Positions 4,164 to 49,211 of a stretch of 64,000 nt of DNA are shown piece by piece (positions within the stretch are counted from its first letter, which is position 1; every line of letters starts with the position of its first letter). The notes under the pieces were generated by a model. That model worked only from the letters and a program-made list of their open reading frames with translations, ran no database searches and had not been told where the DNA came from. The translations under genes and the position numbers were made by a program. Source of the DNA: Trichonephila clavipes (taxonomy: Eukaryota); contig BMAU01016994.1 in assembly GCA_019973935.1 (NCBI GenBank), positions 1,008,762 to 1,072,761 of the forward strand. The letters are read 5' to 3'.

Positions 4164-4496
4164 TTTTACTTGAATAGGCGTTTTCCTTTGGGCGTCCGGA
4201 CTGTAAAAACAGTCGTCAATCCCATATCGTGAGAGTCCATGATGCTGGGCATGGCAAAAGTGGTGTTTTGCATTCTGCTGAGTGGCATGATGGCAATTGG
4301 TCGAACGATGGAATCCGGGAGGAGTGGCTATGGTGCTTCATCTGGGGGGAAAGTTTTTTGAGTTCTTTGGCTTAGCTGAGAGCTTAGAGGTTGCTCTCTA
4401 ATTGGATGCTGGGTACAGTGAACATTGACTCCAATTGGCTGCCCTGGGGACTGGGTTTATCCTCCCGTTGGTGTGGTGTGGTAGTTAGGAGAGGGG

Positions 4497-4616
4497 GGTG
4501 CCAGCTCAGGTGTCGTCCACGTCACTTGACCATGGTTCAAAATTACGTGGTCCGTCGCCAAAAGCCCTCGTGTAGCTGAACAGTGCGACGTTAATATTCA
4601 TTCATTCATTCATTCG
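4497..4616 (+). mobile_element. SINE1, 5'-truncated copy (3' ~120 bp with (TTCA)n tail)
   Basis: Matches the 3' part of the full SINE1 copies. Flanked by direct repeat GGGGACTGGGTTT (4447-4459 and 4617-4629). Confidence 0.8.
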
Positions 4617-6712: not shown

Positions 6713-9000
6713 TATTAAGGTGTGCAATAAAAATTATTGCACGAATAAAAAGAATTACGGGGGGTGTAGAAATCAAGAAGAATTCTTCTTGGTCTTTTTG
6801 TATTGTCATTAGGGGTGTATTGAGATAAATTTTGCATATTGAAATTATTGGTTGTTTGTAAATCGTTAAAAAAGTTAATTGCTATTTTTTGAATATGAGA
6901 TTTGAAACTATTCATTTTAAGAGCATTACGTATGTCGTCATTACGCATGTATCTTGTGGCTTTGACGATCATACGTATAAGAGAATTCTACAGGGTATCT
7001 AGGATATTGATATTAGTTTTAGCGGCATAAAAAACCCCATACTGGACTTGCGTAAGCTAAAATGGGACGCATAACGGCTGTATAGAGAAGCACTTTGTTT
7101 TCTATACTTAAATGTGAGTTCCGGCCTATAAGGGGGTAAAGTTTAAACATAATTTTCCGGAACTTATCGCGAACGTATAAAATATGTTGCTTCCAAGTTA
7201 GGGGCGCATCGAAAATTATTCCAAGGTGTTTGGCTTCCTGAGACCAGGGGATCTGTTTATTGTACATGATGATTGGTGGTGGGAGTGAAAGCTTTTTCGT
7301 GAAAATTATGGCTGTGGAGTTTTCTACGTTAATACTTATTTTCCATTTGTCATAGAAGTTTTGCAGGTGAAGTAGGTGTTTGTTTATTGCATAGGAAATT
7401 GTTAATAGTTTTTTATACGTAGCATGAATGACAGTATCATCGGCGTAAAGGTTAATTTTTGTTAGTGAGTAGTCGGGGATATCATTAATATAAAGATTAA
7501 AGAGCAAGGGACCGAGCAAGGAACCTTGAAGACACCCTGCAGATACAGAGTGTTAGTTGGAAAGGGTCTCGTTAATTCTAATTCTGAAGGAACGATTAGT
7601 GAGATAGGAGTGAATGAGGTGAATTAGTGGGGGTGGAATTTTATAGGATATTAGTTTGAAAGTGAGTCCATTCATCCAAACACGGTCGAAGGATTTCTGG
7701 ATATCCAGAAAAACTATTCCCGTGCTTTTCTTTTTCTGGAAACCTTCCGAGATATGTTCAGTTAATCTTAAAAGTGGGTGTAAGGTTGAGAGCTTGTTAG
7801 TGAAACCATATTGATTGGGATTGAGAAGGTTATTTTCATTGATGAAATTTTTTTAGTCTATGAAGGATAATAGATTCGGTTAGTTTACCTATAGTGGAAA
7901 GGAGAGATATGGGCCTGTACCTGGATGCTAGGTGGGGATCCTTGCCAGGTTTGTTAATGGGAAAAATAATGGCTTCTTTCCAGTTGTCTGGAAAGTGATT
8001 GAATTTGAGGATTTTGTTAATTAGAATTGTTAAAATAAGGATTAATTTAATGGGAAAATTTTTTAACATGCGGTTAGTAATTGAGTCTACCAGGGGCTTT
8101 TTTAGCATTAACATGTTTAATATAGTGGATTATTTCGTCCGGAAGAGCAGGTTCAATGAAGGAGGTAGGGGGGGGGGTAGAAAGGAAGTTATTTACGGTA
8201 GTGTTAATTAATTCATCATTTTGATTGTAATTATCATTTTCGCGTTCATTTTCGACAAAATTATTTTTAATGTTAGTAACGAGGAGGTTAGCTTTTTGCT
8301 GATCAGTGACTGCCGTACCTGTTGCACAATTTAGTGATGGGATTTTTAGTCTTTTATTTTTAAAAAATCTTTGCGTGCGCCAAAGGCTATTGTCTGCGGT
8401 ATTTAGAACTTCAAGTCTTTTTTGCCAAATGTTATCATTATATTTTTTAAGTTCTTTTTTAAGATCCGATTGTGCTCTATTGTAATGCGATTTAAAAATG
8501 GGATTGAGGGTTTGATGGTAACGTTTTTGGAAGTAATTTTTGATTTTTAGCAGCTGGTTAATATGATGTGAAGTGAAGTTCCTACGGTCTGTTTCTATTA
8601 GTCGGGAGGCGTTGCTATGAGTATCGATGACTTCTTCGGTGAATTCTGTGATTTTTTGCTCTAAGTCGTAAGTGCTATTAATACTATTAGGATGGAAATC
8701 AAAGAGAGAAAGATTCTCATTTAGATTAGTTTTGAAAACATTCCTGTCGGTGGAAACCGCTCTGGGATTTGAGGGTTCCACCGCTAGTTTGAAGTTGAAA
8801 TTTAAGAATACTGGATTGTGGTCAGTAGAAAGATCGTCGATGGAGTTAATAGTAAAGGGGTAATAGAAGTTTTTAATAAGGGCGATGTCTATTGTGTTAG
8901 CGGAATTGTGACCAAATCTAGTAGGAATAGAGGGAAAGGCGATATTTAAGTTGAGCATATTAGCGAAGTTAAACAATTTTACTTTTTTTCCACCATTCCT
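6713..9000 (-). mobile_element. non-LTR (LINE) retrotransposon, Jockey/CR1-like, 5'-truncated, frameshifted ORF2
   Basis: Minus ORFs contain an APE endonuclease C-terminus (..STDHNPV..), RT motifs (YRPISLL, FADDT-like YADDTVI) and a C-terminal domain. Four ORF pieces 6715-8976. Confidence 0.8.
6715..8976 (-). pseudogene. LINE ORF2 (endonuclease-RT) broken into 4 ORFs
   Basis: ORFs 8074-8976, 7836-8114, 7019-7519 and 6715-6972 are collinear RT pieces in different frames. Confidence 0.75.
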
Positions 9001-9285
9001 TATGTACTCCTCTCTTACACTCTCGTCATTGTGACGCGTACTATCCGCGCCATCTGGTGGTTTCCTGTAATTTGCATATTCTTCTTCAAGATGTGTGTGA
9101 TAATTCTACAGGTGAAATTTTTATTTTAGAGTTCAATTTCTGTGTGATTCTGAATTATCCATAATTTATGGACATGAGTGTAGATAAGCACAAGGAAAAT
9201 TGAGAGGTCTTCATAGATTAAAAATTTTCCAAATCAAAATTCTCTTTTCTAGCTTGTGATTGATCACCAAGGCGTATTCTTGAAT

Positions 9286-9550
9286 GGATTAATGGAATAT
9301 TAATGTCGCACTGTTCAGCTGCACGAGGGCTTTTGGCGACGGACCACGTAATTTTGAACCATGGTCAAGTGACGTGAACGACACCTGAGCTGGCACCCCC
9401 CTCTCCTAACTACCACACCACACCAACGGGAGGACGTTTCAGCTCTCGACAGATTTAACGTGCATCGCTGCCCTACACGGCGGGTCTTTAATGGTACTGG
9501 GCTCGAACTCGTGACAAGGCAAGCCACGATCCGATACCTATACCACTCGG
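9286..9550 (-). mobile_element. SINE1 copy (tRNA-derived SINE)
   Basis: Reverse complement matches SINE1 (GCCGCGGTAGCCGAGTGGTATAGG...GTGCGAC). Flanking direct repeat CTTGAATGGA (about 9276-9285 and 9556-9565). Confidence 0.75.
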
Positions 9551-10397
9551 CTACCGCGGCCATATCCTTGAATGGAACGAACTGGTTTGTAGTAACTATG
9601 CACGAGATCATCCACTTGGAAAACTCTCCGCTTGGTAATATATTGTTACGTAGATCCGGGGTTCGATGATTTTATGCAAATCAGTCATAAAGAACAAGAC
9701 AGTTCCTTAAGAGCGATGAGAATTTACAGTCGAAACTCCAATCCTTGAAATATAGGATTCAGCAGCAATATTCACAGAATAAATCTTAGAAGGTCTTTAC
9801 ACCTTCAACAGTATTAAGACACAATTATTGGTGTCTAAAATACACGTATATAAAATATTATTCATAAGCAATCGCTCTTTCAACAACCGAAGTAATCACT
9901 ATTCACTTCAACAATCAGAGCAATAATACCTGATTGCTAGTCAAGACCAGATCAGACTGACTTTCGGCTAGCATCTCTCTTTCTTTATACCCCTCGCGGA
10001 TGATTCGAGAAATACCTGCTTGTGTCATAGGTCTTAAAATTAGTGTATTTCTCTACTAATTTCTAAAAGAATCCAGAGGGTTCCGAACGCACTAAAAATG
10101 GTCGCCAATATGATCACTAAGTCGCAAACTTGGTCGCCAAAAATGACGCCAACTTGGCTCTATCACCATGATTTCGCCAAGTTCCTATTGAATCACCATT
10201 ATAACGTATTATATATTATTATAACGTAACGTTATTTTTAACGTAAATTAAATCTAATTTAGAGTAAGATAAAGGCATTACACATCCAAATACAAATTAT
10301 TGACACTATTTAACACAAAATTCGTATCAATATTGTTGTCTTGACATTTGGAGTTTCTGGAAGACTGATGTTTCCAGAAAATATTATTGGTATAGCT

Positions 10398-12619: not shown

Positions 12620-13401
12620 GTTATAGATAAGCGGTGTTATATAGATAAAAACTCCCGTTTTTGAACTATTGGTTCTACAAACTTGAAATTTGGTAGGCAT
12701 GCTCCATTTATAAAGTTGTGAATCGCTACATAAGGGGTTTTACAAAAAAAATGAACCATAAGGGACTTAAGGGGCGTTATATGTAAATATTCCTGTTTCT
12801 TAATTATTAGACCTACATGCTAGAAGTTTGGTTGGCCCGTTCCTTTCATGAAGTAGAAAACCACTAAATAAGAGGTTTCGCGAAAATCTACTACAAAGGA
12901 GCATTGCAGGGGCGTTATAGATAATTGTTCTCGTTTTTATAATCTATTAGACCTACAAACTTGAAATTTGGAGGGCATGTTCCTTTCAAGGATTAAAGGT
13001 ACGCCACAAAAGGGGTTTGGGCGAAAAATGAATCCTAAGGGGTGGTGTTATAAATAAATATTCCAGTTTCTGAACTATTGGACCTACAAACTTGTAATTT
13101 GGTAGGCCTGTTCCGTTTATAAAGTTGAGATTCGCAACACAAGGGATTTTTCAAAATTTGAACCCCAAGGAGTGTCGCTAGGGCTTAAGGGGCGTTATAT
13201 ATAAATATTCTCGTTTTTGAACTATTAGACTTACATGCTGGAAATTCGGTAAGTTCGTTCCTTTCATGGAGTCAAAATCCACTACAAGAAGTGTTTTAAA
13301 AATCGACCCGATAGGTCATTGCGAGGGCCTAAAGAGCGTTAGAGGAAAAATATTACCGTATTTGAACTTTTAGACGTACAGACTTGAGATTTTGTTGGTA
13401 T

Positions 13402-13444
<43 letters not shown>

Positions 13445-13700
13445 TTGAATATAGATCCGCTAAGAACGGATTTTACGGAAATCGAGGAGAGGAGGGGAGA
13501 GGAATTCTTTTGCAGCGTATTGATAAAAAATTCCCCATTTTTGAACTATTAGACCTTCAATAAGGAAATTTATCTCTGTTGTTGAACTGAACGGGTTTGT
13601 TGAATGGGTCTTACAAAAATCGACTCTCAATGGTGGTTACTGGAGCTTATTGAAAAAAAAAGATTGTTTTTGATCTAGTAGATTTAAACTTGAAATTTGG
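12620..13700 (+). repeat. satellite-like tandem array, ~135-150 bp unit, about 7 units (left arm)
   Basis: Recurring unit containing GGGGCGTTATA..AATATTC..GTTT..AACTATTAGACCTACAAACTTGAAATTTGGTAGG at ~140-bp spacing. Confidence 0.8.
13403..13443 (+). repeat. poly(T) tract of ~41 nt inside the array
   Basis: Uninterrupted T run. Confidence 0.95.
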
Positions 13701-13806
13701 CAAGCATGTTTATTTAATTGAGTAGATACTCACTAAAAATGGGTTTTGGGAAATCCACTTTGGAGGGGGTTACGAGAGAATAAAATATAATTCTATTACA
13801 ATTTAT

Positions 13807-14135
13807 GACAATCCCCCATGTCGTGTATTCATTGTGTTGAAATAAAGAAGCCTTTTCATTACTGGAACAAATACTATTTAATGTTCTTACGTTCCACAAC
13901 ACAAGGGGTCACTTAAATAAAACAACACACATCCATTATAGTTACAGAAAAATAGCTTAAGGACTAAAAGGGGGGGGACAGGCTTTCCCTGACTCCACGT
14001 GTGCACATCTTTTCCCGGTAGCGATCCAGGGCAGCAGAGCGGGGGGACGAGTTCCCGCTTCTCAAAAGAACAGGTGGTGCCCCCTGGCTGCCACTAATCA
14101 TAAAGGGAAGGCAGGGTTTAAATATAGTTGTTACA
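13807..14135 (-). repeat. 3' LTR (TG...CA)
   Basis: About 95% identical to 22404-22738. Minus-strand read starts TGTAACAAC and ends GGGGGATTGTCA. Preceded by GTAGGGGGAGAA polypurine tract (14136-14150, minus). Confidence 0.8.
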
Positions 14136-14421
14136 TTCTCCCCCTACACCGCCGAAGACCGTCTCGGCGAGGGGGTGTACTAGCAGACATTATGGCATTC
14201 TCTCCGGCAGTCCCTCTAGGAATCAATGGCTGTTTACGTGGCCTTCCTCTTTTCTTGAGAGGTACTACAGGAGACTGGGTCTCTGTGCCATTCAGAAAGG
14301 GTGTTAAAGCTGATGTATGGTAGACACCTAAAGGTTCGTCGGGTTTGTCACAACTGGCTACTACAAAGGTAGTGGGAGATCTCTGGGATAACACAATGTA
14401 CGGCCCGTCTCTCCTAGGCAT
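14131..14421 (-). pseudogene. integrase C-terminal fragment
   Basis: ORF ...GPYIVLSQRSPTTFVV...PLGVYHTSALTPF... (gypsy integrase C-terminus, GPY/F-like) lies immediately upstream of the 3' LTR. Confidence 0.6.
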
Positions 14422-14486
14422 GACTTTTGCACTCCTGTTCTGACTCGCTTTACTTAATGGGTGAAGTGAAGTTTTGATTAGTGGCA

Positions 14487-14773
14487 GCCAGGAGGCACCA
14501 CCTGTTCTTTTGAGAGCGGGAACTCATTCCCCCCTCTCTGCTGCCCTGGATCGCTACCGGGGAAAGATGTGTACACGTGGAGTCAGGGAAAGCCTGTTTC
14601 CCCCCCCCCTTTTAGTCCTTAAGCTATTTTCTGTAACTATAATGGATGTGTGTTGTTTTATTTAAATGACCCCTTGTGTTGTGGAACGTAAGAAAATTAA
14701 ATAGTATTTGTTCCAGTAATGAAAAGGCTTCTTTATTTCAACACAATGAATACACGACATGGGGGATTGTCAA
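14487..14773 (+). repeat. 5'-truncated LTR copy of the same family in inverted orientation, inside the element
   Basis: Reverse complement of 13807-14100. It sits between the RT/RNaseH ORF end (14857) and the integrase C-terminal ORF (14421). Confidence 0.75.
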
Positions 14774-14856
14774 TGTTAAATTCATCAGCCTCTTTAACGG
14801 TTGATGGTCGGATGCCACTGTAATTTCTGCCCCTTCAATATATCCTCTAAATTTGT

Positions 14857-15844
14857 TTAAGGCCCAGACTGCAGCCAAGGCTTCTCGCTCTGTTGTCGAG
14901 TAATTTTTTCAGCAGAACTCAAGAGTCTACTGGCATATTCTACTAGCTGTTCATCGGTGGGGCTTTCTCCTTGTAACAGAACTGCACCGAGGGCGTAACT
15001 GCTTGCATCCGTTCGGATGATAAAAGGCTTTTCAGGATCAACTTGTCTCAATATTGGCGGGGTTATTAAACATTGTTTGAGGGTTTGGAAAGCTTGTTGC
15101 TCAATTTCACTCCATTTCCAAGCAGTACTTTTCTTTGACAAGTTGCTAAGGGGTCTAGCAATATCTGAAAAATTCGGGATGAATTTTCTATACCATGAGC
15201 AGGTCTGTAAAAATGACTGTAGCTGCTTTAGGTTTCTCGGGGAAGGAATGTTTTGTATCGCTGCAGTTTTATCCTGATCCACCTCTATTATCTTAGGAGT
15301 TATCCAAAGTCCAAGGTATTTTACGCGAGAGCAAACAAACTTGCATTTTTCTTTGTTAGCACATAATTTAAATATTTTAAGTCTGTCAAAGACCATTCTT
15401 AAGTCCTCAATGTGTTGTTCAAACGTTTCAGACAACACAACGATATCGTCTAAATACACCAGAATATTTACATTTGGCAATCCATTACGAAACTGGTCCA
15501 TAAGACGCTGAAAGGTTGCTGGGGCATTGCGAAGTCCAAATGGCATTCTTTTGTACCTAAATGTACCAAAAGGGCAAACGAATGCAGTCTTATCCTGGTC
15601 CGCTGGATTGACCTCTACCTGATGATAACCGGATTTTTTTTAAGTCAAGGGTAGACATAAAAGCAGTAGATTTAGCATCATGTAAAAGAACATTCATGAG
15701 GGGCAGTGGATATTTGTCAGGTATAGTAATCGCATTTAATTTACGATAATCTATGCACAACCTAACAGTTCCATTAGACTTGGGCACTAAAACTACTGGG
15801 GCTGCGTATGGGGACTCGCATTCTTCTATAATATTATGAGCCAA
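14857..15844 (-). CDS. reverse transcriptase plus the start of RNase H (two ORFs, 15590-15844 and 14857-15546)
   Basis: Motifs LCIDYRKLN, PFGLRNAPATFQRLM, YLDDIVV, TDASSYALGAVLLQ. Confidence 0.85.
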
Positions 15845-16003
15845 AAGATTATCAATTTCTTTCCTTAAGTGTTCTTTCCTGTTTGGAGATAGTCTATAAG
15901 GTGCAGTTGAAACTGGTGGGTGGTCACCTGTGTTTAAAAAGTGTTTTACGAATGGAGTTGGTTCTCCCCCTAGTCTGAAAACATCTTTACTTTCATTAAG
16001 CAG

Positions 16004-16281
16004 GGGCCGCGGTAGCCGAGTGGTATAGGTATCGGACTGTGGCTTGCTTTGTCACAGGATCGAGCCCAGTACCACTAAAGACCTGCCGTGTAGGGCAGCG
16101 ATGCACGTTAAATCTGTCGAGAGCTGAAACGTCCTCCCGTTGGTGTGGTGTGGTAGTTAGGAGAGGGGGGTGCCAGCTCAGGTGTCGTCCACGTCACTTG
16201 ACCATGGTTCAAAATTACGTGGTCCGTCGCCAAAAGCCCTCGTGTAGCTGAACAGTGCGACGTTAATATTCAATCAATCAA
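16004..16281 (+). mobile_element. SINE1 full-length copy inserted between the gypsy PR and RT
   Basis: tRNA-like head GCCGCGGTAGCCGAGTGGTATAGG...GTTCGAGCCC, then conserved body and (TCAA)n tail. 13-bp target-site duplication TTCATTAAGCAGG (15991-16003 and 16282-16294). Confidence 0.85.
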
Positions 16282-16731
16282 TTCATTAAGCAGGACCATC
16301 AAATCATTTCTTTCTTCTACATTTAGAGCCTGTCCTTCTTCTTCTCGCGAATGGAGATCATTTGTCTCAGTTTCATCAACAGTGTTGCTATGCAATGGAA
16401 TTTCACTGGGAATCGAATTTGTGGGACAAGAACTACTATTTATTTCGACAGGACTGTCGTCTACAGGCAAAGGAACATCTTTTGAAAAAGGTACCCTGAA
16501 GCTTGGTTTGTCACCAAAATACCAAAAATTGTTACGCATGTCCATTACGATTCCTGATGTCCTTAAAAAGTCAACACCTAGAAGAGTGCGGTTACCTTTT
16601 GCATGTGGCAAAAAAATTAAATCGATTTGGAAAGTTCGTTCACCTACAGTGATTGGTACTGTAGCTTTTTGAACAAGGGATGTGGATTTCAGCACAAACT
16701 GTGCCTGTAGCCTCATAGACTTCGATGTCAA
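16270..16731 (-). CDS. aspartic protease
   Basis: ORF with ...IDLIFLPHAKGNRTLLGVDFL... (retropepsin-like). Confidence 0.6.
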   Translation of the reverse strand: MTSKSMRLQAQFVLKSTSLVQKATVPITVGERTFQIDLIFLPHAKGNRTLLGVDFLRTSGIVMDMRNNFWYFGDKPSFRVPFSKDVPLPVDDSPVEINSSSCPTNSIPSEIPLHSNTVDETETNDLHSREEEGQALNVEERNDLMVLLNELID

Positions 16732-17886
16732 GTAGAGCTACTGGGGAGGTAAGACAAGTAAACATGTGTATGGCGTTGACAGAGGCACAGTGTGCATTTT
16801 AGTGAGCATTTTGGACATTTCGATTTTATAAATCCAGGGTTGCTACAACCATAGCAAGAAATAGGTGGATGAAAACCGGTGTTGGTATTCCGAGCTGGCA
16901 TGTAGCTAGGGTTAGCAAAAGCACTATTGTGATTACCCGAAACATTCTTTTCAACTTTGAATGAGTGAGACTTCCTAAACTCCGGATTGCCTGTGTTCCT
17001 AGAAAAACGAGAGTTGCTTAGTTTTGTTAATTTCTGCGAAGAGGGTTTAACATTTTCGAATGAGTCCAGCTTTTCAGCTAACACAACAGGATCATTCAGT
17101 ATTTCCCAAGTGTCTAGGAAATGATTCTTGTAATCTGGTGGACAACTTTTTTTATTTGATCTGCTATGATAAGATCTTTCAAGGTTTCAAATGAATCTAT
17201 TTCTAATTCTTTTAGCCAACCTTCGAAAAAGGTTCTTAGCTCAAAAAAGAAATCTTTCCACGTGGAATGATCCTGTTTCTGGTGTCGGCAAAAAAGGACT
17301 CTGAAACGGTCAGCTGTCAGCTTGAACCCTTGCAATAAAATATTGTGAATGTGAGCCTAATTCCTAAACATCTCTTCCAGTTCTCTTGCAATTAACCTGC
17401 CAATATCACTTGGCAGGACTCCAATTAAGTGTGATACCCAAAAATCGGCAGGTACATTTAGGAGCTTCATTTGTCTTTCGAACATTGTTAAAAACAATGA
17501 TATGTCATCTTTATCAGGGATGAATGTGGGCAAGACTGTTTTTAAATCCAGCCTCATGGGGTTAGAATCCATTTGAGAAGAATTACCTACGGAAGCTGGA
17601 GGATTTTGCGCTTGTAATTTAAGCTTTTCAAGCTCAAATGCTCTCTGATCAGCAAGACACTTATCCTCCCGTTCCATTTTCTTAAGGCTTCGCCTTCAAG
17701 CGATTTACGTTCATCAACAATGTTATCGAACATCTCTTTCACAAACTGCTCATTATTCTGAAAGAATGTACATGAAGTGATTTTTTCGCGTAAGTCAATT
17801 ATTTTATCCTCTAAAGTCACAGAGACTCGTAGCTCACTTGCTAAATTATAGAGGTCTATTTTCTTGCCTTTTGAGAGAAAAGCCAT
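16728..17886 (-). CDS. gag (4 ORF pieces) with CX2CX4HX4C zinc knuckle
   Basis: ORFs 17587-17886, 17357-17677, 17114-17335 and 16728-17084 (CYGCSNPGFIKSKCPKC). Confidence 0.65.
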
Positions 17887-18180
17887 ATTCGTCTTTTAAA
17901 ATAAAACTAGATTCAGGTTTTAAAGTATACAGGAAGTTATAAATTAAATTGGTTTTCCTAATAGCAATGGATAAGTATTAACCAATCATTAAACAACTAC
18001 CTTCCCTGTAAAGAAAACATAAAAAGAAAAAATTCAATATAAAGGGTATAAACAAAACATTTTTTACAAAGATCTTCGGAAAATCTAAATAAAATACCAT
18101 AAATTCAACTGTATATGAAATATAAAATTAATCCTGAGTCACAATAGCATATTGAAAAAACGTGATTACATGTTATGTTA

Positions 18181-18192
18181 TGAAATATATAT

Positions 18193-18264
<72 letters not shown>

Positions 18265-18270
18265 TTATAT
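18181..18270. repeat. (TA)n microsatellite
   Basis: Dinucleotide run. Confidence 0.95.
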
Positions 18271-18779: not shown

Positions 18780-20700
18780 GGTCTATTAAATAAAGGATTA
18801 ATGTTATATTTATCAATGCGAGCAATTGCTCGATTAGTATGAGAGTCTATGTTGTTGAAAAACTTAATCGCGATTTTTTTTGAAGAATTCTTTTAAGGTT
18901 TTAATTTTTAACGCAAATCTGATTTCATCATTTCTGATGTACCAGGGAGAGTCTGTGATGATTTTTAAAATTTTGTTTTGTGCTGTTTCTAACATTTTAA
19001 CATTAGAATAGGCTGCGTGGCCCCAGATTGGACTTGCATATTGTAGGACAGGTCTGAGAACGAGTTTATAAATAAGCAACTTGTTTCTCAAGGATAAACA
19101 TGATTTCCGTGCGATTAAAGGGAAAACTTTAGCGACGGAAATGTTAAAATTTCGGCGAACGCGAATGATATGTTGTTTGAAAGTGAGTCTTTTATCGAGG
19201 ATCACCCCTAAGTATTTGGTGTTATTAGACCAGGGTATGTGTGTGTTGTGAAGGTATAACTTGGGTGGTTCTTTTTTGATGTGATATGAGAAGAAGACGG
19301 CCTCTGTCTTTGCTACATTTAAAGCAATTTTCCAAGTAGAGAACCAGTCTTCTAGTTTAGCAATGTGCTTGTGTAGGAAGTGAGTAACGAGTTGGAGTTC
19401 GTTACTTTGTGCCAGGATCGCCGTGTCATCGGCAAACATGCAAATCGTGGATTGGCTGGTTCTAGGAATATCGTTAACATAGATATTAAATAGAATCGGA
19501 GAGATGGAACTGCCCTGAGGAGTTCCAGCAATTATTCTTCTGTTGGAAGAATGAGAGTTATTTACTTTCACCGTGAAAGAACGGTTATTTAAAAAGGAAT
19601 TAATTAGTTTGATTAAGTGGGGAGGGGTTTTAATTTTAATTAATTTGTAGAGTAGTCCCACATGCCATACTCTATCAAATGCCTTCTGGATGTCTAGGAA
19701 AACAGCGCCGGTAGATTTCCGGTCTTGGAATCCTGATTTTATGTACTCCACCACCCGCAGAAGCTGGTGTGATGTGGAGAGTCCGTCTCGGAAGCCATGT
19801 TGTTGAGGGATTAGGATGTCATTATCGTTTAGATGTAGACAGAGTCTTTTTTTGAATAATTTTCTCAGTTATTTTACTGAGAACAGGTAATAATGAGATT
19901 GGGCGAAAACTATCTGGGAGGGTAGGATCTTTCCCAGGTTTAAGGATCGGAATTACCGATGCTGTTTTCCATAGTTGTGGGAAGTAACCCACTTTAAGAA
20001 TATTGTTAATTAGATTAGTAATTTGGAAGATTACAGATCTATTAAAATGTTTGCACATTTTTGTCGTGATACCTTCTCGGCCGGGGGCCGTTCTGATTTT
20101 AAAGTTATTGATAATGTTAATTATTTCGGAAGGTTTAGTATTAGTAGGAGAGTCATCAAAATTATTTTCGTTATTAAGGAATCTAGAAACCAGCCTAGTG
20201 TGGGTTGAGTCTTGTGTTGGATTTGAAATGTCGTTGAGTTGAAACTGATTTTCTAGCGAGTCCGCTAGTGTTTCAGCTTTTTCGTCGTCTGTAAAGGCGA
20301 TCCTGGTGTTGCCGTTAAGGGCTGGGATGGGGGATCTCTTCTTCTTAAAACCTTTGGTCATGTTCCATAAGGAGCCATCGACCGTGTCTAGAGAAGCGAG
20401 TTTGTCCTCCCATTGTTTTTGTGTGAATGCTTGTGTTTTTCTGTGAATTTTATTCTGAATTCTGTTGAGATCTGTTTTATGAGTGGGATTCCGTGTGAAT
20501 TGATAAAGTTTACGTGTCTTATTTCTAAGTTTAAAGAGTGCTTTTAACTCGTTGTCTATGTAAAAATTATTGTTAGCGTAGATTTTAATGGATGCGTTGT
20601 TGTATGCATTAAGAATGTGGTTGGTGAGAGTGGAGGCCTGCTCTTCAATCTCCTCTCCCGTCTGCGCTGTGATTGGTTGAAAAGTGGGCGTGTTTGAGAG
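18780..20700 (-). mobile_element. nested LINE (Jockey/CR1-like), 5'-truncated, inside the gypsy leader
   Basis: ORFs 19822-20361 (..FRPISLLPVLSKITEKII..) and 18864-19754 (..FADDTAILA.., GTPQGSSISPILFNIYVNDIP). Same family as the 6713-9000 LINE. Confidence 0.8.
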
Positions 20701-22019: not shown

Positions 22020-22260
22020 TCACGATGGTATTTTTAACACATAAATCAACACAATTTCACTTCGGATTATTTCCTCACTTTTCGAGCACTTTCACCTTAG
22101 TATCCGGATGATACTAACCGATTATTTTCCAACTAAAAGACGAGCACTTTCACCTTAGTATCGGGATGATACTAAAACTGACAATTTTCTAAAAGACGAG
22201 AACTTTTACGTTAGTATCAGGATGATACTAAAATCGATTATTTCCAGATACAATCAAGCA
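22020..22260. repeat. ~58-bp tandem repeat, about 4 units, in the gypsy 5' leader
   Basis: Repeated GACGAGCACTTTCACCTTAGTATCGGGATGATACTAAAA....ATTTTC. Confidence 0.75.
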
Positions 22261-22388
22261 CTTTAACTTTGACTGTCGGGGCGACACACACTAAAATTTC
22301 CATACACGTGGTCAGTTGGTCGAAGAAAAACAACATGTCCGTTCAAGGAAGCGTTGATCAGCATCTCGGTTTCCTGGTCCGGTTAGAA

Positions 22389-22400
22389 CGTTGGGCGCCA
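22389..22400 (-). promoter_or_regulatory. primer-binding site matching tRNA-Lys(1,2) 3' end (TGGCGCCCAACG)
   Basis: Lies 3 nt downstream of the LTR end on the minus strand. Matches the first 13 nt of the TGGCGCCCAACGTGGGGC PBS used by Lys1,2-primed retroelements. Confidence 0.7.
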
Positions 22401-22403
22401 CTA

Positions 22404-22738
22404 TGACAATCCCCCATGTCGTGTATTCCTTGTGTTGAAATAAAGAAGCCTTTTTATTACTGGAACAAACACTATTTAATGTTCTTACGTTCCACAACAC
22501 AAGGGGTCACTTAAATAAAACAACACACATCCATTATAGTTACAGAAAAATAGCTTAAGGACTAAAAAGGGGGAGGGAAACAGGCTTTCCCTGACTCCAC
22601 GTGTACACATCTTTTCCCGGTAGCGATCCAGGGCAGTAGAGCGGGGGACGAGTTCCCGCTTCTCAAAAGAACAGGTGGTGCCCCCTGGCTGCCACTAATC
22701 ATCAAGGGAAAAGGCAGGGTTTAAATGTAGTTGTTACA
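22404..22738 (-). repeat. 5' LTR
   Basis: Direct repeat of 13807-14135. Confidence 0.8.
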
Positions 22739-22795
22739 AATTTTATTATTTGGAAGTTCTGTCCTTTTTAAATCAAGTATTATAAGAATATTTTT

Positions 22796-23089: not shown

Positions 23090-24240
23090 ACCAAAACAAC
23101 TTTCAGTGGATCTCTACTCTATAAAATAAACATGCATGCTAAATTTGAAGTCTAAATGTAACAGAGCAAAAACGGAATTTTTATCATCAATACCTCGTTG
23201 ACAGCATTCTTAGCGGATTCCAATTCAACAAAAGAAGCACGCAAACCAAATTTTATTATTATAGTCTTAGCAGTTCAAAAACGGGAATTTTGTCTATCAA
23301 TACGCCCCAATAACTCTCCCCGCTTCCCCCTGGAGTTGATTTCCGTAAAATCCGTTCTTAGTGGAACTCTATTCAACTATAAAGAAAAGTGTTCAACAAA
23401 TTTCAAGTAAATGAGTTAAATTCAAAAACAGGAATTTTTCTATAACACGCCTTAATCCCTCGCAATCCCACTCCTTTGGGGGTCCGTTTACGCAAAAATC
23501 TTTGTAAAAGGAACTTTATTCCATGAACGGAACATACCTTCTATTAGTTGAAAAGCGGAAATATTTATCTATTACGCCCCTTAATCTCCCTCAGTGACCC
23601 TTGGGGATCAATTTCCCCCAGAACTATTTTGTAGCGGATCTCTACACCATGAAAGGAATTCGCTTACCAAATTTTAAGACTGTACGTCTAATAGTTTAAA
23701 AATGGAAATAATTAGCTATAACGCCCCTTAAGCCCCCGCAATGCCCCTTAGGAAACGATTTTCACAAAACCCATCTTATAGTGGATTTCTACTTAATGAA
23801 TGAAATCAGCTTACTAAATTTCGAGATTTTACGTCTAATAGTTTAAAAAAAGAGTTAATTGCCTATAATGCCAATTAATTCTCTACAACGCCACTTGGGA
23901 GTCGATTTTGACAAAACCCATTTTGCATCGGATCTGTACGCTATGAAAGGAATCCCCTTACCAAATTTCAAGACTGAACATCTAATAGTTTAAAAATGGA
24001 AATAATTATGTATAACGCCCCTTAAGCTCCCTCAACGCCCCTTGGAGGTCGATTTTTGTAAAAATCATTATGTAGGGAATCTCTACTTTATGAAAGAAAT
24101 CTGTGTAACAATAATTATCTATAACGCCCCTTAATTCCCCGTAACGCCCTTTGGGGTTCGAACTTTGAACAATCCGTTCTTATCTGACGTCTACGCCATG
24201 AAGGGAACCTACCTACCAAATTTCAAGTCTGTAGGTTTAA
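23090..24240 (-). repeat. satellite-like tandem array (right arm), inverted relative to 12620-13700
   Basis: Reverse complement of the left-arm unit (ATAACGCCCCTTAAG...CTAATAGTT...) recurs at ~140-bp spacing. Inner ends also align (13443-13700 versus 23090-23390). Confidence 0.8.
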
Positions 24241-24287
24241 TAGTTCCGGAGATATCGTGATTAGTCAGTGAGTGAGTCGCTTTTCTC

Positions 24288-24960: not shown

Positions 24961-25857
24961 TTAAATTAAATTGGGCTCGACTACTGAAGTCATTGACCTC
25001 CCTATCAAAAAGTGGGCTGGAGTTAAAGCGTTCAAGTCATCCGAATTGCTCGATAAAGGGCACAGTGGCCTGGAATTTAAAATTCCCTCTATTTGGATAC
25101 AAACAGTTAAAAATTCCTCATAGGTTAAATTTGAGCCACTGACAACTCTCCTAAGATGGTACTTTATTGATTTAACCGAAGCTTCCCAAAGACCACCAAA
25201 GGATGGCGCTCTAGGTGGTATAAACTTCCATTCTATACCCTCAGCAGATAAGAAACCTGCTAAATTATCATCTGAATCCTCAATAAGTTTTAGAAATCTC
25301 TTGAGCTCTTTATTGGCACCTACAAATGTTTTCCCATTATCGGAATACAATTTAGCACATTTACCTCTGTGACTAAAAAATCTTTTTAATGTAGCAATAA
25401 AAGCATCAGATGTAAGATCTGACACAATTTCTATGTGAATCGCTTTAGACACAAAACATACAAATACACAAATATAAATTTTATGCAAAATTCCTTTTCT
25501 TTGATTTTTGTACCTGATCATGAATGGGCCACAAAAATCCACACCAGAACAGTTAAACCGGTAATCTGGGACTACTCTATCACGGGGTAGATTACCCATT
25601 AGCTGAGAGGTAACAAGGGGTCGGCTTTTAAAACAGACAAGGCACTCATGCACTACTTTTCTGCATAATGAACGACCATTTAATGGCCAGAACTTTTCCC
25701 TTACATAGTGTAGAAGAGAAGAAGCACTAGTATGCAGATTCTTTCTATGGAAATGGACAATTATTTGAACAGTTAAATTATGATTTCCTGGTAAAATTGC
25801 AGGATGTTTATTAACATAAGGTAAATCTGAATTACTCAGCCGGCCTCCAACTCTCAA
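24961..25857 (-). CDS. BEL integrase
   Basis: ORF has an HX3H..CX2C zinc finger and a DDE core (..DNGKTF..). Confidence 0.75.
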   Translation of the reverse strand: MRVGGRLSNSDLPYVNKHPAILPGNHNLTVQIIVHFHRKNLHTSASSLLHYVREKFWPLNGRSLCRKVVHECLVCFKSRPLVTSQLMGNLPRDRVVPDYRFNCSGVDFCGPFMIRYKNQRKGILHKIYICVFVCFVSKAIHIEIVSDLTSDAFIATLKRFFSHRGKCAKLYSDNGKTFVGANKELKRFLKLIEDSDDNLAGFLSAEGIEWKFIPPRAPSFGGLWEASVKSIKYHLRRVVSGSNLTYEEFLTVCIQIEGILNSRPLCPLSSNSDDLNALTPAHFLIGRSMTSVVEPNLI

Positions 25858-25976
25858 TAATCCATCACTGTCTATAAAGGGGTTTAAATTTCTAAGTTTA
25901 CTATTAGGTGAGATAACTCCTTTACTTTATAAGCTCTTCATTTCAGCCAAAAAAACATGTTCTTGGACCATTCTGA

Positions 25977-27407
25977 TCAGTTTAGTTTCTGCTTGGTCTT
26001 ATCTGTAGCAGAAAGGGGACCACTCAATGTTAGTTTACGTTTGTTTACATTATTGCTAAATCTTAACACATAACTAACTATACGAACAATTTTCATATAA
26101 CTATTACTTTTACATAACAGAGTAGATAAAATAGAAGATACACAATTAGTTGAAACACAAACACTAGATGTAATTATATCAGAACTCGAACCAGTTTTCA
26201 GTTCCTTAGAATACTCGCATTCCTTAACTGGTGACAAACTTGTTTCTTCACTTGACAACTTACCTTTTTCAAGGAATTGTGGACCATGCCACCATAACCT
26301 TAAATTTGGAAGGTCACAAGGGCGCAGTCCCCGAGACAAAAGATCTGCTGGGTTGAGAACAGATGGCACATGGTTCCACTGGAATCCTTCAGTCAATTCT
26401 TGCACCTTGGCGACACGATTGGCCACGAAAGTTTTTAAACGATTGGCAGGTGTATTTAACCATGCCAATGCAATAGTGGAATCCGTATGTAGCACAATAT
26501 CACTTATGTTTAACCTCAAGGTGGAGTGTATTTTCTTGACGAGTTGAGCTAATAAAACACAGGCACAAAGCTCGAGTCGAGGTATGGAAATAACTCGAAT
26601 TGGTGCAACACGAGATTTGCTGGCAAGAATGCACACTTTGGCAACACCGTTGTGAAGAAAACACTGTAGGTAAACGACCGCTCCGTAGGCCGCTTCAGAT
26701 GCATCCGCAAATCCTTGGAGAACGATTCTAACATTATTGTCAGCCATAACAAATCTGTTAATTTTCACTTCCTCGATACATTTTAATGTTGTCACAAATT
26801 CTCTCCACTCGTTGGCAATTGAATTAGGTAACACATCATCCCAATCCAGTTTACATTGCCATAATTGCTGCAGAAACAACTTTGCTTTCGCAATCACTGG
26901 GCCTAAGAAATCCAAAGGGTCGTATAGCTTAGCAATTACATTTAAAACTTCACGTTTTGTATATATATGTTTAGCTGAAACAGATACCTTAAACACGAAA
27001 CAATCTTCAAATGGCTTCCAACTAATTCCCAATGTCTTCACAGATAAGTCAATGTCAGTAGAAAATGAATGCTCGACATCTGATGACAACGAACTATTTA
27101 ATAACTCAGGAGAATTAGATGACCACTTATGAAGGTTCATTCCACAAGATTGCAGGGCGTCTTTCAGTTGCGATTGCAATTGTTGAGCAGCCTCCAAATC
27201 CGGCGCTCCGCTCACAATATCATCCATGTAGGTATCATATAACAGGGTTTCAGAAGCTAAAGGAAATCTCGATTTTTCATCCTTCGCCAACTGCTGCAGG
27301 GTTCTTATGGCAAGGAAGGGTGCGTTGGACAGCCCGTAAGTGACAGTCTTTAGTCGGTACGTTAAAATTTCTGCATCTGGTCCATGTTTCCATATAATGC
27401 GTTGCAA
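25977..27407 (-). CDS. BEL RT (YMDD) plus RNase H
   Basis: ORF contains YMDDIVSG and the RNase H motifs ADASEAAYGAVVYLQ and HTDSTIALAWL. Confidence 0.8.
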   Translation of the reverse strand: MQRIIWKHGPDAEILTYRLKTVTYGLSNAPFLAIRTLQQLAKDEKSRFPLASETLLYDTYMDDIVSGAPDLEAAQQLQSQLKDALQSCGMNLHKWSSNSPELLNSSLSSDVEHSFSTDIDLSVKTLGISWKPFEDCFVFKVSVSAKHIYTKREVLNVIAKLYDPLDFLGPVIAKAKLFLQQLWQCKLDWDDVLPNSIANEWREFVTTLKCIEEVKINRFVMADNNVRIVLQGFADASEAAYGAVVYLQCFLHNGVAKVCILASKSRVAPIRVISIPRLELCACVLLAQLVKKIHSTLRLNISDIVLHTDSTIALAWLNTPANRLKTFVANRVAKVQELTEGFQWNHVPSVLNPADLLSRGLRPCDLPNLRLWWHGPQFLEKGKLSSEETSLSPVKECEYSKELKTGSSSDIITSSVCVSTNCVSSILSTLLCKSNSYMKIVRIVSYVLRFSNNVNKRKLTLSGPLSATDKTKQKLN

Positions 27408-38609: not shown

Positions 38610-38745
38610 TCTTGGTGTGGAAGTTAGGAGAGGGAGGTACCAGCTCAAGTGTAGTCCTCCTCACTTGACCATGGTTTAAAATAATGAGGTTCATCTCCAA
38701 AAGCCCTCGTGTAGCTGAATAGCCCAACACTAATATTTATTTACT
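38610..38745 (+). mobile_element. old, diverged SINE1 3' fragment
   Basis: About 80% match to the SINE1 3' region (GGTACCAGCTCAAGTGTAGTCC...CCCTCGTGTAGCTGAATAGC). Confidence 0.55.
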
Positions 38746-41498
38746 CACTCCATATGTGTATCTGTTAATATTGATTAAAGCCGTTTTTTTTGCATTTTTG
38801 TGCTTATTTCCATAATTTTGTAATTAAATGCTGTTTTAGCCTTAAAATACATTTTGATAGCTCTATTTTGCAGTCTGATACAACATATTTAATGGCATTC
38901 ACAACAAGTTTGTGTGCATGATGTTACTACATAAATATGAATAATTCTGTATCTCAGGAAGATGAATTTGAGGAGTACTTAAAACTAGCTTTGAAATTTG
39001 GTTCAGAAATTAATTGAAGGATTCACATCATCCACAGAAAGCTATTTGAAAATAATTGAGCTTGTAATGTCTAGATATGAGAAAGAGGAATTTTTAATAT
39101 AATTATATGTTAGAGAATTGTTACTCTTGTTCTTCAAAAAGGATGGGAAATTCCAGTTGTCTAGTTATATAATAAATTAGAATCTCAATTGCATACCCTA
39201 GATTCCTTGGGAACTTAGAACTTACTGAAAAAGAACTCTCCTTAGAACAGAGTCTAATAACTATTATCATTTAACTTTTGTTCTTTTTTAGTATTAAGGT
39301 GCATATATATAACTGTAATTGATGACAGTGTAATTAACTTTTTAGCTTAATTTTAAGAGAAATTACCATTCTTCAGACTGAGAAATATTTTTTAGACAAT
39401 CATTAAAAATAAACTTTTGTTGAATTGTTTAATCAGTTATATTGATTTTTGTCATATTGACTCTTTGCAATTAGATTGTCTAAAATGTAATTCATAGGAT
39501 GTCTAAATATTTTCTGTGTGTGTGTAAATATCAGTTATTCTGAAAAATTACTTAATATTGACAAAAATAGGGTTATTGAAAAATTAAAGGGAATGTTTTC
39601 AAAAATATTAATAATTTTTTACCTCAAAATGCAGTTATGTCAACAGTATTACTTTTTTTTTCATTTTGGAAGTAAATTCATAATAAATTCGTGATATTTA
39701 TGAATTATTTTCATGCTTGTGATTTATTACCAATGATTAAAACTGCATGCCAGAGAATTTTCCAAAGACATTACATGTTATGACAACCAATTTGATATCC
39801 TAAAAATATTTTCTAAAATTTATTGAAATCCCCTGAAGATCACAGATGACATGGGGTTAGTATTTAAGTACTAAGAAGTTGATTATAGATTTCAGTTGTG
39901 TAATTGTTTTAAGGTGCATGTTGTGTCAGTTTTTGCAATTTTAGATTTTAAAACTATTTAAAAAGAACAAAAAAATTTAATTTTTCAAACTGTGATTTAT
40001 GAAATAATGCTAAAAATGATAATTTTTAAAAATTACTATTTGTTACATTTAAAGGTCAAAAACTCAGAATAATTGTTGGCTTGACAGTGATTAAAAAAGG
40101 AATGCAATTGTGACTCAAATACTTCAACTGATTCTTACTGTCTAAAAAAGTTTTTTGTCTCTGTTTTACTAAGATAGATTGTGTATTTTAGGAACATGTT
40201 GTTGGTCTAAAATTGAAGTTACTCATGTGTAAAATGATTAATAAATACAAAAGTTACATATATTCAGAGAATAGCTGTTATGTGGCTTAAAACTTAATAC
40301 ACAAATATCGTACCTTGTTGATATTTAAGTATCAAATTAACTCTTTTTTTAATTTTTGATATGTGTCTAAATTGTGATTTAGAAATGTCAATGAGAAATG
40401 TTTTCATAAGTGTACTACAGATATGAAATTTGTATATGTAACGTTTTTAACTCTAAAGAAACCTTTGACTTGTCTTTTCACTTTTATGCATTTAGCAGTT
40501 TAATGGAAGCCAGTATAGTATATATAAAGGCAATAGATTTTAATTAGTGGGTTATGGATTAACCAGAAAGCAAATTATTGTCGGGATACTGGAAAAATAG
40601 AAAGAAAAAAAATTCTCCATTTTCAAATAATTTTACCAAACTGAAATAAATCTACAAGTTAAAATCTGACCCAAACTGTAATTTTTTAGAGATAAGACAT
40701 GTGCTCTACCTATAGGAAGAGTTCATGTGTGAGGATTTTATAATATTGGATATGATATACAACATTACTACTGCTTGTAAAATAATTAATGGTTAACTTT
40801 AAAAAACATTAGGGCAGAAAATATTACTTGAAATTTTCATGAGTAATTACTTAGTTTTCAAAAGAGTGCTGTGTGAAGCAGTGTAAAAATATTAAATACT
40901 TTACAAAGCACAGATAGATGTAAAAATATTGATTAGGAGGCAGTGCCTGATTAATTAAATAAGAATAATAAATCATCCAGACATGAAATATGGAAAAATG
41001 ATGAAATTGGGCAGTAAGTATATTAAGATTTTACATAATGAACCAATCCCCATTAAAGAAGGGGAGTTATACCAAAGGAAGTGTAAGTCACACACACACA
41101 ATTCTATGTAAATGTTCTTAATTATTTAGAACTCTCAAGAAGATGGTAACTGCTCAAAAAAATCCAATCCTGGATTTAAAAGGAAATTAATCCTGGGCAA
41201 TCTAAGCACATTATTTGGCAAAAACTTTTTGAAAACACAGAATACAAATACAAAATTGTCATTTCAAGCGGTGATAAATCAAGTACTATGCTCTTCATCA
41301 ATTTCACATATATTATGATTTAATCTAAATTTTTTATCCAGGATTTTACCTTTCATTCCGAACAATCTGTTGCAAATGTTTCAGCAATAGTTTTATTTAT
41401 TGTATATATAATTTTTCTGTCATGAAATAATGTACTTTATTAACTCTAATGATCTACAATATGAATTAAATTTTACATGCATTATATTTACATAATAG

Positions 41499-44422: not shown

Positions 44423-44540
44423 TCGGTGCCAGCTCAGGTGTCGTCCACGTCACTTGACCATGGTTCAAAATTACGTGGTCCGTCGCCAAAAGCCCTCGTG
44501 TAGCTGAACAGTGCGACGTTAATATTCAATCAATCAATCA
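44423..44540 (+). mobile_element. SINE1 5'-truncated copy (SINE-a), left boundary of the tandem duplication
   Basis: SINE1 3' ~120 bp with (TCAA)n tail. Flanked on both sides by TTGGGAAAACTTC (44410-44422 and 44541-44553). Confidence 0.8.
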
Positions 44541-45900: not shown

Positions 45901-46601
45901 TTAACATTGTGATTCTGTCATATGTATATACATATTTATATTAATTGTAACTATTTAATAATAAGTAGCTAAAAAATAAATTTTTTGTTTTTTGATCTAA
46001 GCAGGAATTGACTTTTTATATTACTTGTTTTTAAATTTTGTTTACCTTATTTTCTCTGAATCATAAATAAAATGAGGATAAGAAAAAATTTTTCAAGCTA
46101 GTGTAGGATCTTGATTTGGAAGTGTTTGTAATTATTGATAAAACTGTTATGTATGCTTAAATATGCAATTTCTTAAAAACATTTGCATTACTTTTTGGCT
46201 TTGTAAATGGTTTTGTGATCTTAATTTAAATTATATTGGAAAAAATACCAAATGTATGAAAGATTTTACATCATTTAGTGTTTAACTTTTCAATCATAAT
46301 AGGCACTATAATTTTGAAAAATGTCCATTATTTTAAATTATTGTTATTGTAAGATAAAATTAAAATAATAAATCTACCTTATTTGTTACTCTTGTATATG
46401 ACATAATTTTCTGAAATCAAGATTTGTACCAAGTTTTCATAAAAACTTTTTCAATATTTAAGATTACATGGAGGTTATACCATAGACCGGTGGTCTTCAA
46501 AGTTTTTCAACTCATGAAACCCCTAGAACAAGAATGTGTTTTCATGGAAACCCTATAACTAGAGAGTATTTTCATGGGACCCTACTCCCCACACACACAG
46601 T

Positions 46602-46876
46602 GGCTGCGGTAGCCGAGTGGTATAGGTATCAGACCGTGGCTTGCCTTGTCACGAGTTCGAGCCCAGTACCACTAAAGACCCGCCGTGTAGGGCAGCGATG
46701 CACGTTAAATCTGTCGAGAGCTGAAATGTCCTCCCGTTGGTGTGGTAGTTAGGAGAGGGGGTGCCAGCTCAGGTGTCGTCCACGTCACTTGACCATGGTT
46801 CAAAATTACGTGGTCCGTCGCCAAAAGCCCTCGTGTAGCTGAACAGTGCGACGTTAATATTCAATCAATCAATCAA
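46602..46876 (+). mobile_element. SINE1 full-length copy (recombinant junction copy)
   Basis: 5' flank CCCCACACACACAGT. 3' flank TTGGGAAAACTTC. So the 5' flank comes from the downstream SINE and the 3' flank from the upstream SINE. Confidence 0.8.
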
Positions 46877-48936: not shown

Positions 48937-49211
48937 GGCTGCGGTAGCCGAGTGGTATAGGTATCAGACCGTGGCTTGCCTTGTCACGAGTTCGAGCCCA
49001 GTACCACTAAAGACCCGCCGTGTAGGGCAGCGATGCACGTTAAATCTGTCGAGAGCTGAAATGTCCTCCCGTTGGTGTGGTAGTTAGGAGAGGGGGTGCC
49101 AGCTCAGGTGTCGTCCACGTCACTTGACCATGGTTCAAAATTACGTGGTCCGTCGCCAAAAGCCCTCGTGTAGCTGAACAGTGCGACGTTAATATTCAAT
49201 CAATCAATCAA
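48937..49211 (+). mobile_element. SINE1 full-length copy (SINE-b)
   Basis: Flanked by CCCCACACACACA on both sides (target-site duplication). Confidence 0.8.

Follow-up and report, generated by a model that had tools for sequence, protein, structure and literature searches.

How does an LTR retrotransposon come to carry, between its RNase H and integrase coding regions, a third LTR that points in the opposite direction to the two at its ends? The question is raised by a Ty3/gypsy LTR retrotransposon of Trichonephila clavipes, which lies on the minus strand of a 64-kb stretch of genomic DNA (the window, analysed at its full length) and runs from a 5' LTR at 22404–22738 to a 3' LTR at 13806–14135. 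The original prediction held that part of RNase H and most of the integrase had been replaced by an inverted partial LTR, and it attributed this arrangement to LTR–LTR recombination or to an aberrant integration such as autointegration.

The outer parts of the element have a conventional layout. The 5' LTR (335 nt, TG...CA) is a direct repeat of the 3' LTR (330 nt), both on the minus strand with the termini TGTAAC...TTGTCA; the pair is 95.2% identical, and diverges at ~4–5% of positions. Beside the U5 end of the 5' LTR, 3 nt (TAG) past it, a primer binding site (PBS), TGGCGCCCAACGT, was read from the sequence at 22388–22400 on the minus strand; it may correspond to tRNA-Lys. A polypurine tract (PPT) on the same strand, AGGGGGAGAA (14136–14145), likewise read from the sequence, adjoins the 3' LTR. 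Directly outside the outer LTRs lie AATTTA (13800–13805) and AATTTT (22739–22744), the left and right copies of a putative target-site duplication (TSD), which is 5 or 6 bp long by the flank match; the two copies agree at 5/6 positions, with a chance probability of ~0.012 at the local base composition. The PBS, the PPT and the matching flanks therefore indicate that the outer LTRs belong to one integration event.

The pol regions are found on the minus strand in the order protease, RVT_1, RT_RNaseH_2/RT_RNaseH and an integrase tail of the SH3_Tf2-1 type, which fits Ty3/gypsy (Metaviridae). The best protein matches are TE-derived T. clavipes gene models, at 93–97% identity. A long leader separates the PBS from the gag region (16728–17886, minus strand), in which ORFs and tblastn of P0012 revealed several frameshifts and a CCHC knuckle, CYGCSNPGFIKSKCPKC. 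The protease region (16286–16731, minus strand) corresponds to an ORF at 16270–16731 and is matched by P0006, P0023 and P0118 in tblastn, with up to 97% identity. It is followed by the reverse transcriptase and the first half of RNase H (14905–15940, minus strand), identified by the Pfam families RVT_1, RT_RNaseH_2 and RT_RNaseH and by tblastn matches of 94–98% to T. clavipes models, with a frameshift near 15636. The rve integrase core, present in the relative P0229 (PF00665), is missing from this copy. Two further insertions interrupt the element. The leader harbors a nested non-LTR (LINE-like) reverse transcriptase (18864–20361, minus strand), recognized by its ORFs and a Pfam RVT_1 match (E 1.3e-31), while pol is interrupted by a nested 281-nt dispersed repeat (SINE/MITE-like; 16005–16285), found by repeat comparison within the window and present in copies of 94–98% identity at least at 9281–9561, 46598–46873 and 48933–49208. 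The divergence of the LTRs, the several frameshifts and the two nested insertions mark this copy as old and defective.

The third LTR copy occupies 14472/14475–14772 on the plus strand, and is therefore inverted with respect to the element, as established by inverted-repeat analysis, alignment and blastn. Its identity with the 3' LTR amounts to 95.05% across 303 nt (E 2e-134), and that with the 5' LTR to 94.7%; the alignment of the three LTRs thus bears out the inverted similarity that had been predicted, at ~95% to both outer copies. The predicted span of 14487–14773 needs correction at both ends: the copy is real, but extends ~12–15 nt further on the left and ends at 14772. It was rightly described as 5'-truncated. 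In element orientation, it lacks LTR positions 1 to ~35, i.e. the start of U3, and its U5 terminus, ...GGGGGATTGTCA, has its last base at 14772. A TATA-like motif, TATATTTAAA, at LTR positions 10–19 and an Inr-like TTAGT at 39–43 are motif guesses in this part of the LTR, and a second TATA-like motif lies near position 194. Together, the inverted LTR and the 3' LTR form a 300-bp inverted repeat with a 368-nt spacer, and the corresponding hairpin (300-nt arms, 368-nt loop) has an RNA fold z of −34.

When the three LTRs of the element were compared, 9 private changes were found in the inverted copy, 7 in the 5' LTR and 2 in the 3' LTR, counts by which equal age is not rejected (exact p = 0.10). 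Seven states are common to the inverted LTR and the 3' LTR and differ from the 5' LTR. The branch of the inverted LTR is thus the longest, as it might be if the source copy was a separate or an older one, but the excess is not significant. The use of LTR divergence as a clock to choose between models was rejected, the counts of 7, 2 and 9 being too small (p about 0.1).

The inverted LTR meets RNase H at junction 1. The RT/RNase H ORF does stop at 14857, as had been noted, but its stop is due to a 1-nt slip in an A-run near 14905–14908 and does not mark the end of homology. Translation, Pfam and tblastn show that RNase H continues in a shifted frame, ...STTEREALAAVWALNKFRGYIEGAEITVASDHQPLKRLMNLT, over 14773–14908 on the minus strand. 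The shifted-frame sequence, ...ASDHQPLKRLMNLT, reaches 14774 and matches positions 48–87 of the 105 of the RT_RNaseH profile (E 3e-11, Pfam), and residues 263–307 of P0001 map to 14908–14774 in tblastn. As the RNase H homology reaches 14774, RNase H meets the LTR terminus directly, with no filler. In element orientation, the junction (14772/14773) joins ...AATTTAACAT to TGACAATCCC and is nucleotide-exact: the first bases of the LTR are its terminal TG, which read CA on the opposite strand. Exactly at this terminus the resemblance to the outer LTRs is lost, the flanks at 13805 and 14773 being different. Neither the TAG spacer nor the PBS (TGGCGCC) is present at junction 1, where the inverted copy ends ...TTGTCA, and there is no microhomology at this junction. 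Because the exact CA terminus of the inverted LTR abuts the RNase H coding sequence, integrase-type joining is implied; an exact CA terminus in such a position is, judged from the sequence, the signature of integrase strand transfer.

On the other side, at junction 2, the truncated end of the LTR is followed by the C-terminal ~113 residues of the integrase (14134–14474, minus strand), identified by translation and by tblastn of P0121 at 94% identity. A C-terminal remnant of the integrase was thus correctly recognized, although its length was underestimated: the ~95 residues of the original prediction correspond to the ATG-initiated ORF alone, which has 96. The tail begins ~5 residues inside the SH3-like domain, as SH3_Tf2-1 spans residues 24–86 of P0121; the domain was assigned through this relative, the element's own 115-residue integrase tail giving no match in Pfam. 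The junction reads ...CCACTAATCA joined to AAACTTCA-CTTCACCCATTAAG, the truncated LTR being attached at the K of VWVK-LHPLSKA, with a microhomology of 0–1 nt at most. Comparison of the sequence with the relatives' protein VWVK-LHPLSKA points to an adjacent 5-nt tandem duplication, CTTCA/CTTCA (14462–14471, minus strand), which shifts the integrase frame. The near absence of microhomology (0–1 nt) and the putative duplication beside it resemble what is found at end-joining scars. The integrase tail and the PPT that follows it, which lead up to the 3' LTR, have kept their forward orientation.

If the same arrangement were found in other members, it would be a feature of the family. We therefore compared protein gene models of the family across both breakpoints. 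Nine same-family T. clavipes models (P0001, P0003, P0007, P0009, P0026, P0034, P0055, P0072 and P0118) run ...ASDHQPLKWLMNLT-SPTGRLA... (LMNLT-SPTGRLA) past junction 1, and at least five relatives, P0121 (a cluster of 43 members), P0122, P0124, P0152 and P0156, run ...NDLVWVK-LHPLSKASQNRSAK... (VWVK-LHPLSKA) across junction 2. Of the same-family gene models, roughly 15 extend to one breakpoint or the other, and 0 of them have the rearrangement. Judging by these models, which are canonical at both breakpoints, it is not the normal layout of the family, although a minor subfamily may have it too, and the view that this is a real rearrangement is upheld by gene models that continue without interruption where the element breaks. 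Pieced together from the relatives, the missing segment amounts to ~420 residues, or ~1.3 kb, and comprises the end of RNase H, the zinc-binding domain, the rve core, the linker and the sequence up to the start of the SH3-like domain; the earlier estimate of ~1.2 kb was reasonable. In tblastn with the relatives, no trace of the missing RNase H–integrase segment was found anywhere in the 64-kb window, and its displacement elsewhere in the window is therefore rejected. A 24-mer on which the three LTRs agree was absent from the metagenome and viral contigs. A peptide search with the RNase H end and the LTR read-through gave 4 word-sharing candidates and no match, and is uninformative. The RNase H frameshift, ...SAEKITRQQSEKPWL, is common to the element and the independent models P0004, P0023 and P0093. 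As this shared frameshift is disabling, defective lineages of the family seem to amplify in trans.

The three LTR copies, the junction at an exact terminus, the missing segment and the canonical layout of the relatives were observed; in what order the events took place, how the deletion came about, and whether the rearrangement arose here or in a progenitor that was later retrotransposed are what we infer from them. Our preferred explanation, to which we assign a probability of about 0.6, is that a sibling copy was inserted by integrase in antisense orientation and was then mostly deleted, be it here or in a progenitor. Another copy belonging to the family would have inserted, in the opposite orientation, into the RNase H coding region of the old defective copy, with integrase joining the U5 CA terminus of the nested copy to the target at 14772/14773. 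At least one later deletion would have removed most of the nested copy, together with the first ~35 nt of U3 from the LTR that survived and ~1.3 kb from the host element, either in a single illegitimate-recombination or end-joining event, or by solo-LTR formation followed by deletion. The large inverted repeats contributed by an antisense sibling may have promoted this loss. The remnant would then be a 5'-truncated, inverted solo LTR.

Several observations favor this course of events. The host element is colinear past the insert, with the integrase tail resuming on the same strand at 14474, and the inserted LTR belongs to the same family, at ~95% identity to both outer LTRs. Nesting is frequent in this element, as witnessed by the LINE-like insertion and the 281-nt repeat, and genome surveys routinely list LTR structures that are nested or truncated (PMC5379124). 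Some points also count against a nested insertion. No TSD is visible for the nested copy, whose U3 side has been deleted along with the adjacent host sequence, and direct proof of nesting has gone with it. At least two events are required. The inverted LTR is not visibly younger than the outer pair, contrary to what simple in-situ nesting predicts. The truncation lies near a possible transcription start; if that start is real, the surviving piece would be R-U5, which would hint at reverse transcription. The structure is nevertheless most likely of an already known kind, a case of ordinary transposon decay. The original prediction overstated its case in denying simple decay, as the decay of transposons commonly takes the form of a nested insertion with a subsequent deletion, and the element already carried two other nested insertions.

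The same nesting and deletion may have occurred earlier, in a progenitor, the rearranged and non-autonomous element having then been retrotransposed to this site, after transcription had passed through its inverted LTR, as one of a subfamily. The outer LTRs and their 5/6 TSD show that the composite boundaries integrated as one unit, the longest branch belongs to the inverted LTR, as expected if it is older than the present insertion, and the RNase H frameshift is common to P0004, P0023 and P0093. A subfamily of this kind, however, has no representative among the roughly 15 gene models that reach a breakpoint, a 300-bp RNA hairpin might hinder reverse transcription, and the excess in branch length is not significant, which leaves us doubtful about an origin in a progenitor. 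True autointegration, where a cDNA is attacked internally by its own LTR ends, would likewise place an exact LTR terminus inside sequence of the same family. But each cDNA has two LTRs, and there are three here; host sequence and a putative TSD flank the outer LTRs, the integrase tail and the PPT are not inverted, and the products of autointegration, as far as they are outlined in PMC7197481, are non-integrating "suicide" circles. True autointegration is accordingly left with next to no probability, and in its strict form this proposal of the original prediction fails on the three LTRs, the host flanks with their 5/6 target duplication and the forward integrase tail. Nor can LTR–LTR recombination alone make an extra inverted LTR. 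Both strict autointegration and pure LTR–LTR recombination are thus ruled out by the number of LTRs, their orientation and the TSD.

Reverse transcription offers the main alternative route, as an error within one cycle could generate the deletion and the inverted LTR at once, through snap-back or strong-stop copying. Nascent minus-strand DNA whose synthesis had already proceeded through the 3' R-U3, PPT and integrase tail would switch template, either folding back on its own 5' LTR region or moving to free minus-strand strong-stop DNA; it would copy to the end of U5, jump to the RNA within RNase H, and the product would undergo normal two-LTR integration. A single event would then account for the inversion as well as the deletion, and also for the outer LTRs being intact and having a TSD. 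The hairpin geometry (RNA fold z = −34) and the branches of 7, 2 and 9, by which equal age is not rejected (exact p = 0.10), are in keeping with such an error, as is the stutter-like 5-nt duplication just ahead of the switch point, and the position of the truncation, near TATA+27–31 and the Inr-like site, means that the piece could be about R-U5. Comparable defects are on record, since inverted segments occur in 6% of 531 sequenced integrated HIV-1 proviruses, and the authors attributed the provirus defects with inversions to reverse transcription (PMC6235535). Run-off copying should, however, have added TAG and probably the PBS, whereas the copy halts exactly at the integrase-processing CA, and junction 1 is without microhomology. 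The transcription start is moreover a guess, given the second TATA-like motif near LTR position 194. We consider an error of this type unlikely, if still worth keeping in mind. The exact halt at the LTR terminus would be a coincidence for any sequence-blind process, and this weighs on the proposal that an inverted duplicate of the 3' LTR arose, with loss of the adjacent sequence, when DNA folded back or replication switched template, or that the structure is an assembly chimera. The 7 states common to the inverted and 3' LTRs against the 5' LTR would be explained in this way, and the arms are 368 nt apart. Sister LTRs should nevertheless have equal private branches, and 9 and 2 were seen (p = 0.065); a read-level palindrome artefact is contradicted by arms that differ by 5%. 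We give these proposals little credence.

The proposed antisense nested insertion followed by deletion has counterparts among known systems. The reduction of nested LTR elements by unequal and illegitimate recombination was described in the classic studies of maize, rice and Arabidopsis. As in the nested LTR elements cut down to truncated or solo LTRs that are catalogued for plants and animals, for instance with LTRtype (PMC5379124), a same-family exact terminus interrupts the host element here, the adjacent sequence of both elements has been lost, and the host LTR pair and its TSD are kept. In contrast to those scars, the nested copy of our element is both of the same family and antisense, and the scar mimics an internal rearrangement. 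For annotation, this means that antisense same-family nesting with deletion can be mistaken for an exotic internal event, and that an exact LTR terminus at a junction is a pointer to a join made by integrase.

The resemblance to autointegration is more limited. Autointegration of retroviruses and of Ty1 gives rise to circles of a deletion and an inversion type (Garfinkel et al. 2006, cited in PMC7197481). In these, as in our element, integrase has attached an LTR CA terminus to a site in the interior of the element. The products outlined in that account are, however, extrachromosomal circles with at most two LTRs, in which the internal segment is inverted in the inversion type. Our element differs in its three LTRs, its chromosomal location with a TSD, and its forward integrase tail. 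With regard to errors of reverse transcription, minus-strand self-priming is a source of inversions or deletions in proviruses. Aberrant strand transfers have likewise been described as a source of defective proviruses (PMC12657518). Similar to the defective HIV-1 proviruses analysed by FLIPS (PMC6235535), the element is a single copy with intact outer LTRs, a large internal deletion and an inverted segment; unlike them, it has an inverted LTR that ends at the integrase-processing site, with neither spacer nor PBS. If it were nonetheless the product of a single reverse-transcription cycle, it would be one of the rare cases in which the strand-transfer errors of a gypsy element from an arthropod are preserved in a chromosome.

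Finally, the inverted repeat invites a comparison with the maize Mu killer and the Drosophila hpRNA loci, which are inverted-duplication transposon loci that produce hairpin RNA. Like these, the element is a transposon copy with a long inverted self-repeat, which would yield ~300 bp of dsRNA if transcribed. A transcribed hairpin could then contribute to RNAi directed at this family, of which very many copies are annotated in Trichonephila. We regard as improbable the combined proposal that the element is the fossil of one aberrant reverse-transcription cycle and that its 300-bp hairpin, whatever its origin, may serve as a source of RNA directed against its own abundant family. Unlike the Mu killer and hpRNA loci, this copy is heavily decayed and is interrupted by the LINE-like insertion.

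The 3' LTR (13806-14135) of the decayed Ty3/gypsy copy carries promoter-like motifs close to its 5' end. In element orientation, TATATTTAAA occupies LTR positions 10-19, just 10 nt inside the LTR 5' end, and an Inr-like TTAGT lies about 30 nt beyond it, at positions 39-43; an ATTAAA is found at positions 254-259. If this putative promoter is used, U3 would be about 40 nt, which is unusually short, and the inverted LTR fragment (14472/14475-14772), a third copy without the first ~35 nt of U3, would correspond near-exactly to R-U5.

The RNase H reading frame contains a 1-nt frameshift at an A-run (14905-14908), yielding ...SAEKITRQQSEKPWL. Because this frameshift is common to three independent T. 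clavipes gene models (P0004, P0023 and P0093), the sequence comparison suggests either that a defective subfamily was amplified in trans or that slippage recurs at this site.

The element also harbors other repeats. In its 5' leader, just downstream of the PBS, a 56-58-nt unit occurs three times in tandem (22075-22243), and a LINE-like reverse transcriptase (18864-20361, minus strand; RVT_1, 1e-31), adjoined by a long AT microsatellite, (AT)n, at 18177-18270, is nested in the leader. The protease/RT interval of pol encloses a copy (16005-16285) of a SINE/MITE-like dispersed repeat of 281 nt, whose copies are 94-100% identical throughout the window. Further copies lie at 4460-4614, 9281-9561 (minus strand), 38613-38753, 44425-44538, 46598-46873 and 48933-49208. 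Two of these, near 46.6 kb and 48.9 kb, have identical alignment statistics, suggesting that the pair arose by local duplication.

LINE-like ORFs at 8074-8976 and 7836-8114, both on the minus strand, adjoin a copy of the 281-nt repeat; a Pfam search with the 300-aa ORF among them returned no matches. The minus strand also encodes a BEL/Pao-type retrotransposon pol (24961-27407), with Peptidase_A17 (5e-49), RVT_1, Integrase_H2C2 and rve domains, and another gypsy-like reverse transcriptase (88-819), with 35-45% protein identity to the studied family.

Diverged tandem arrays of 140-147-nt units flank the gypsy element on either side (12638-13750 and 23105-24245), mutually inverted and about 70-77% complementary. 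Together, they form a large foldback-like inverted repeat, with the gypsy element near its centre.
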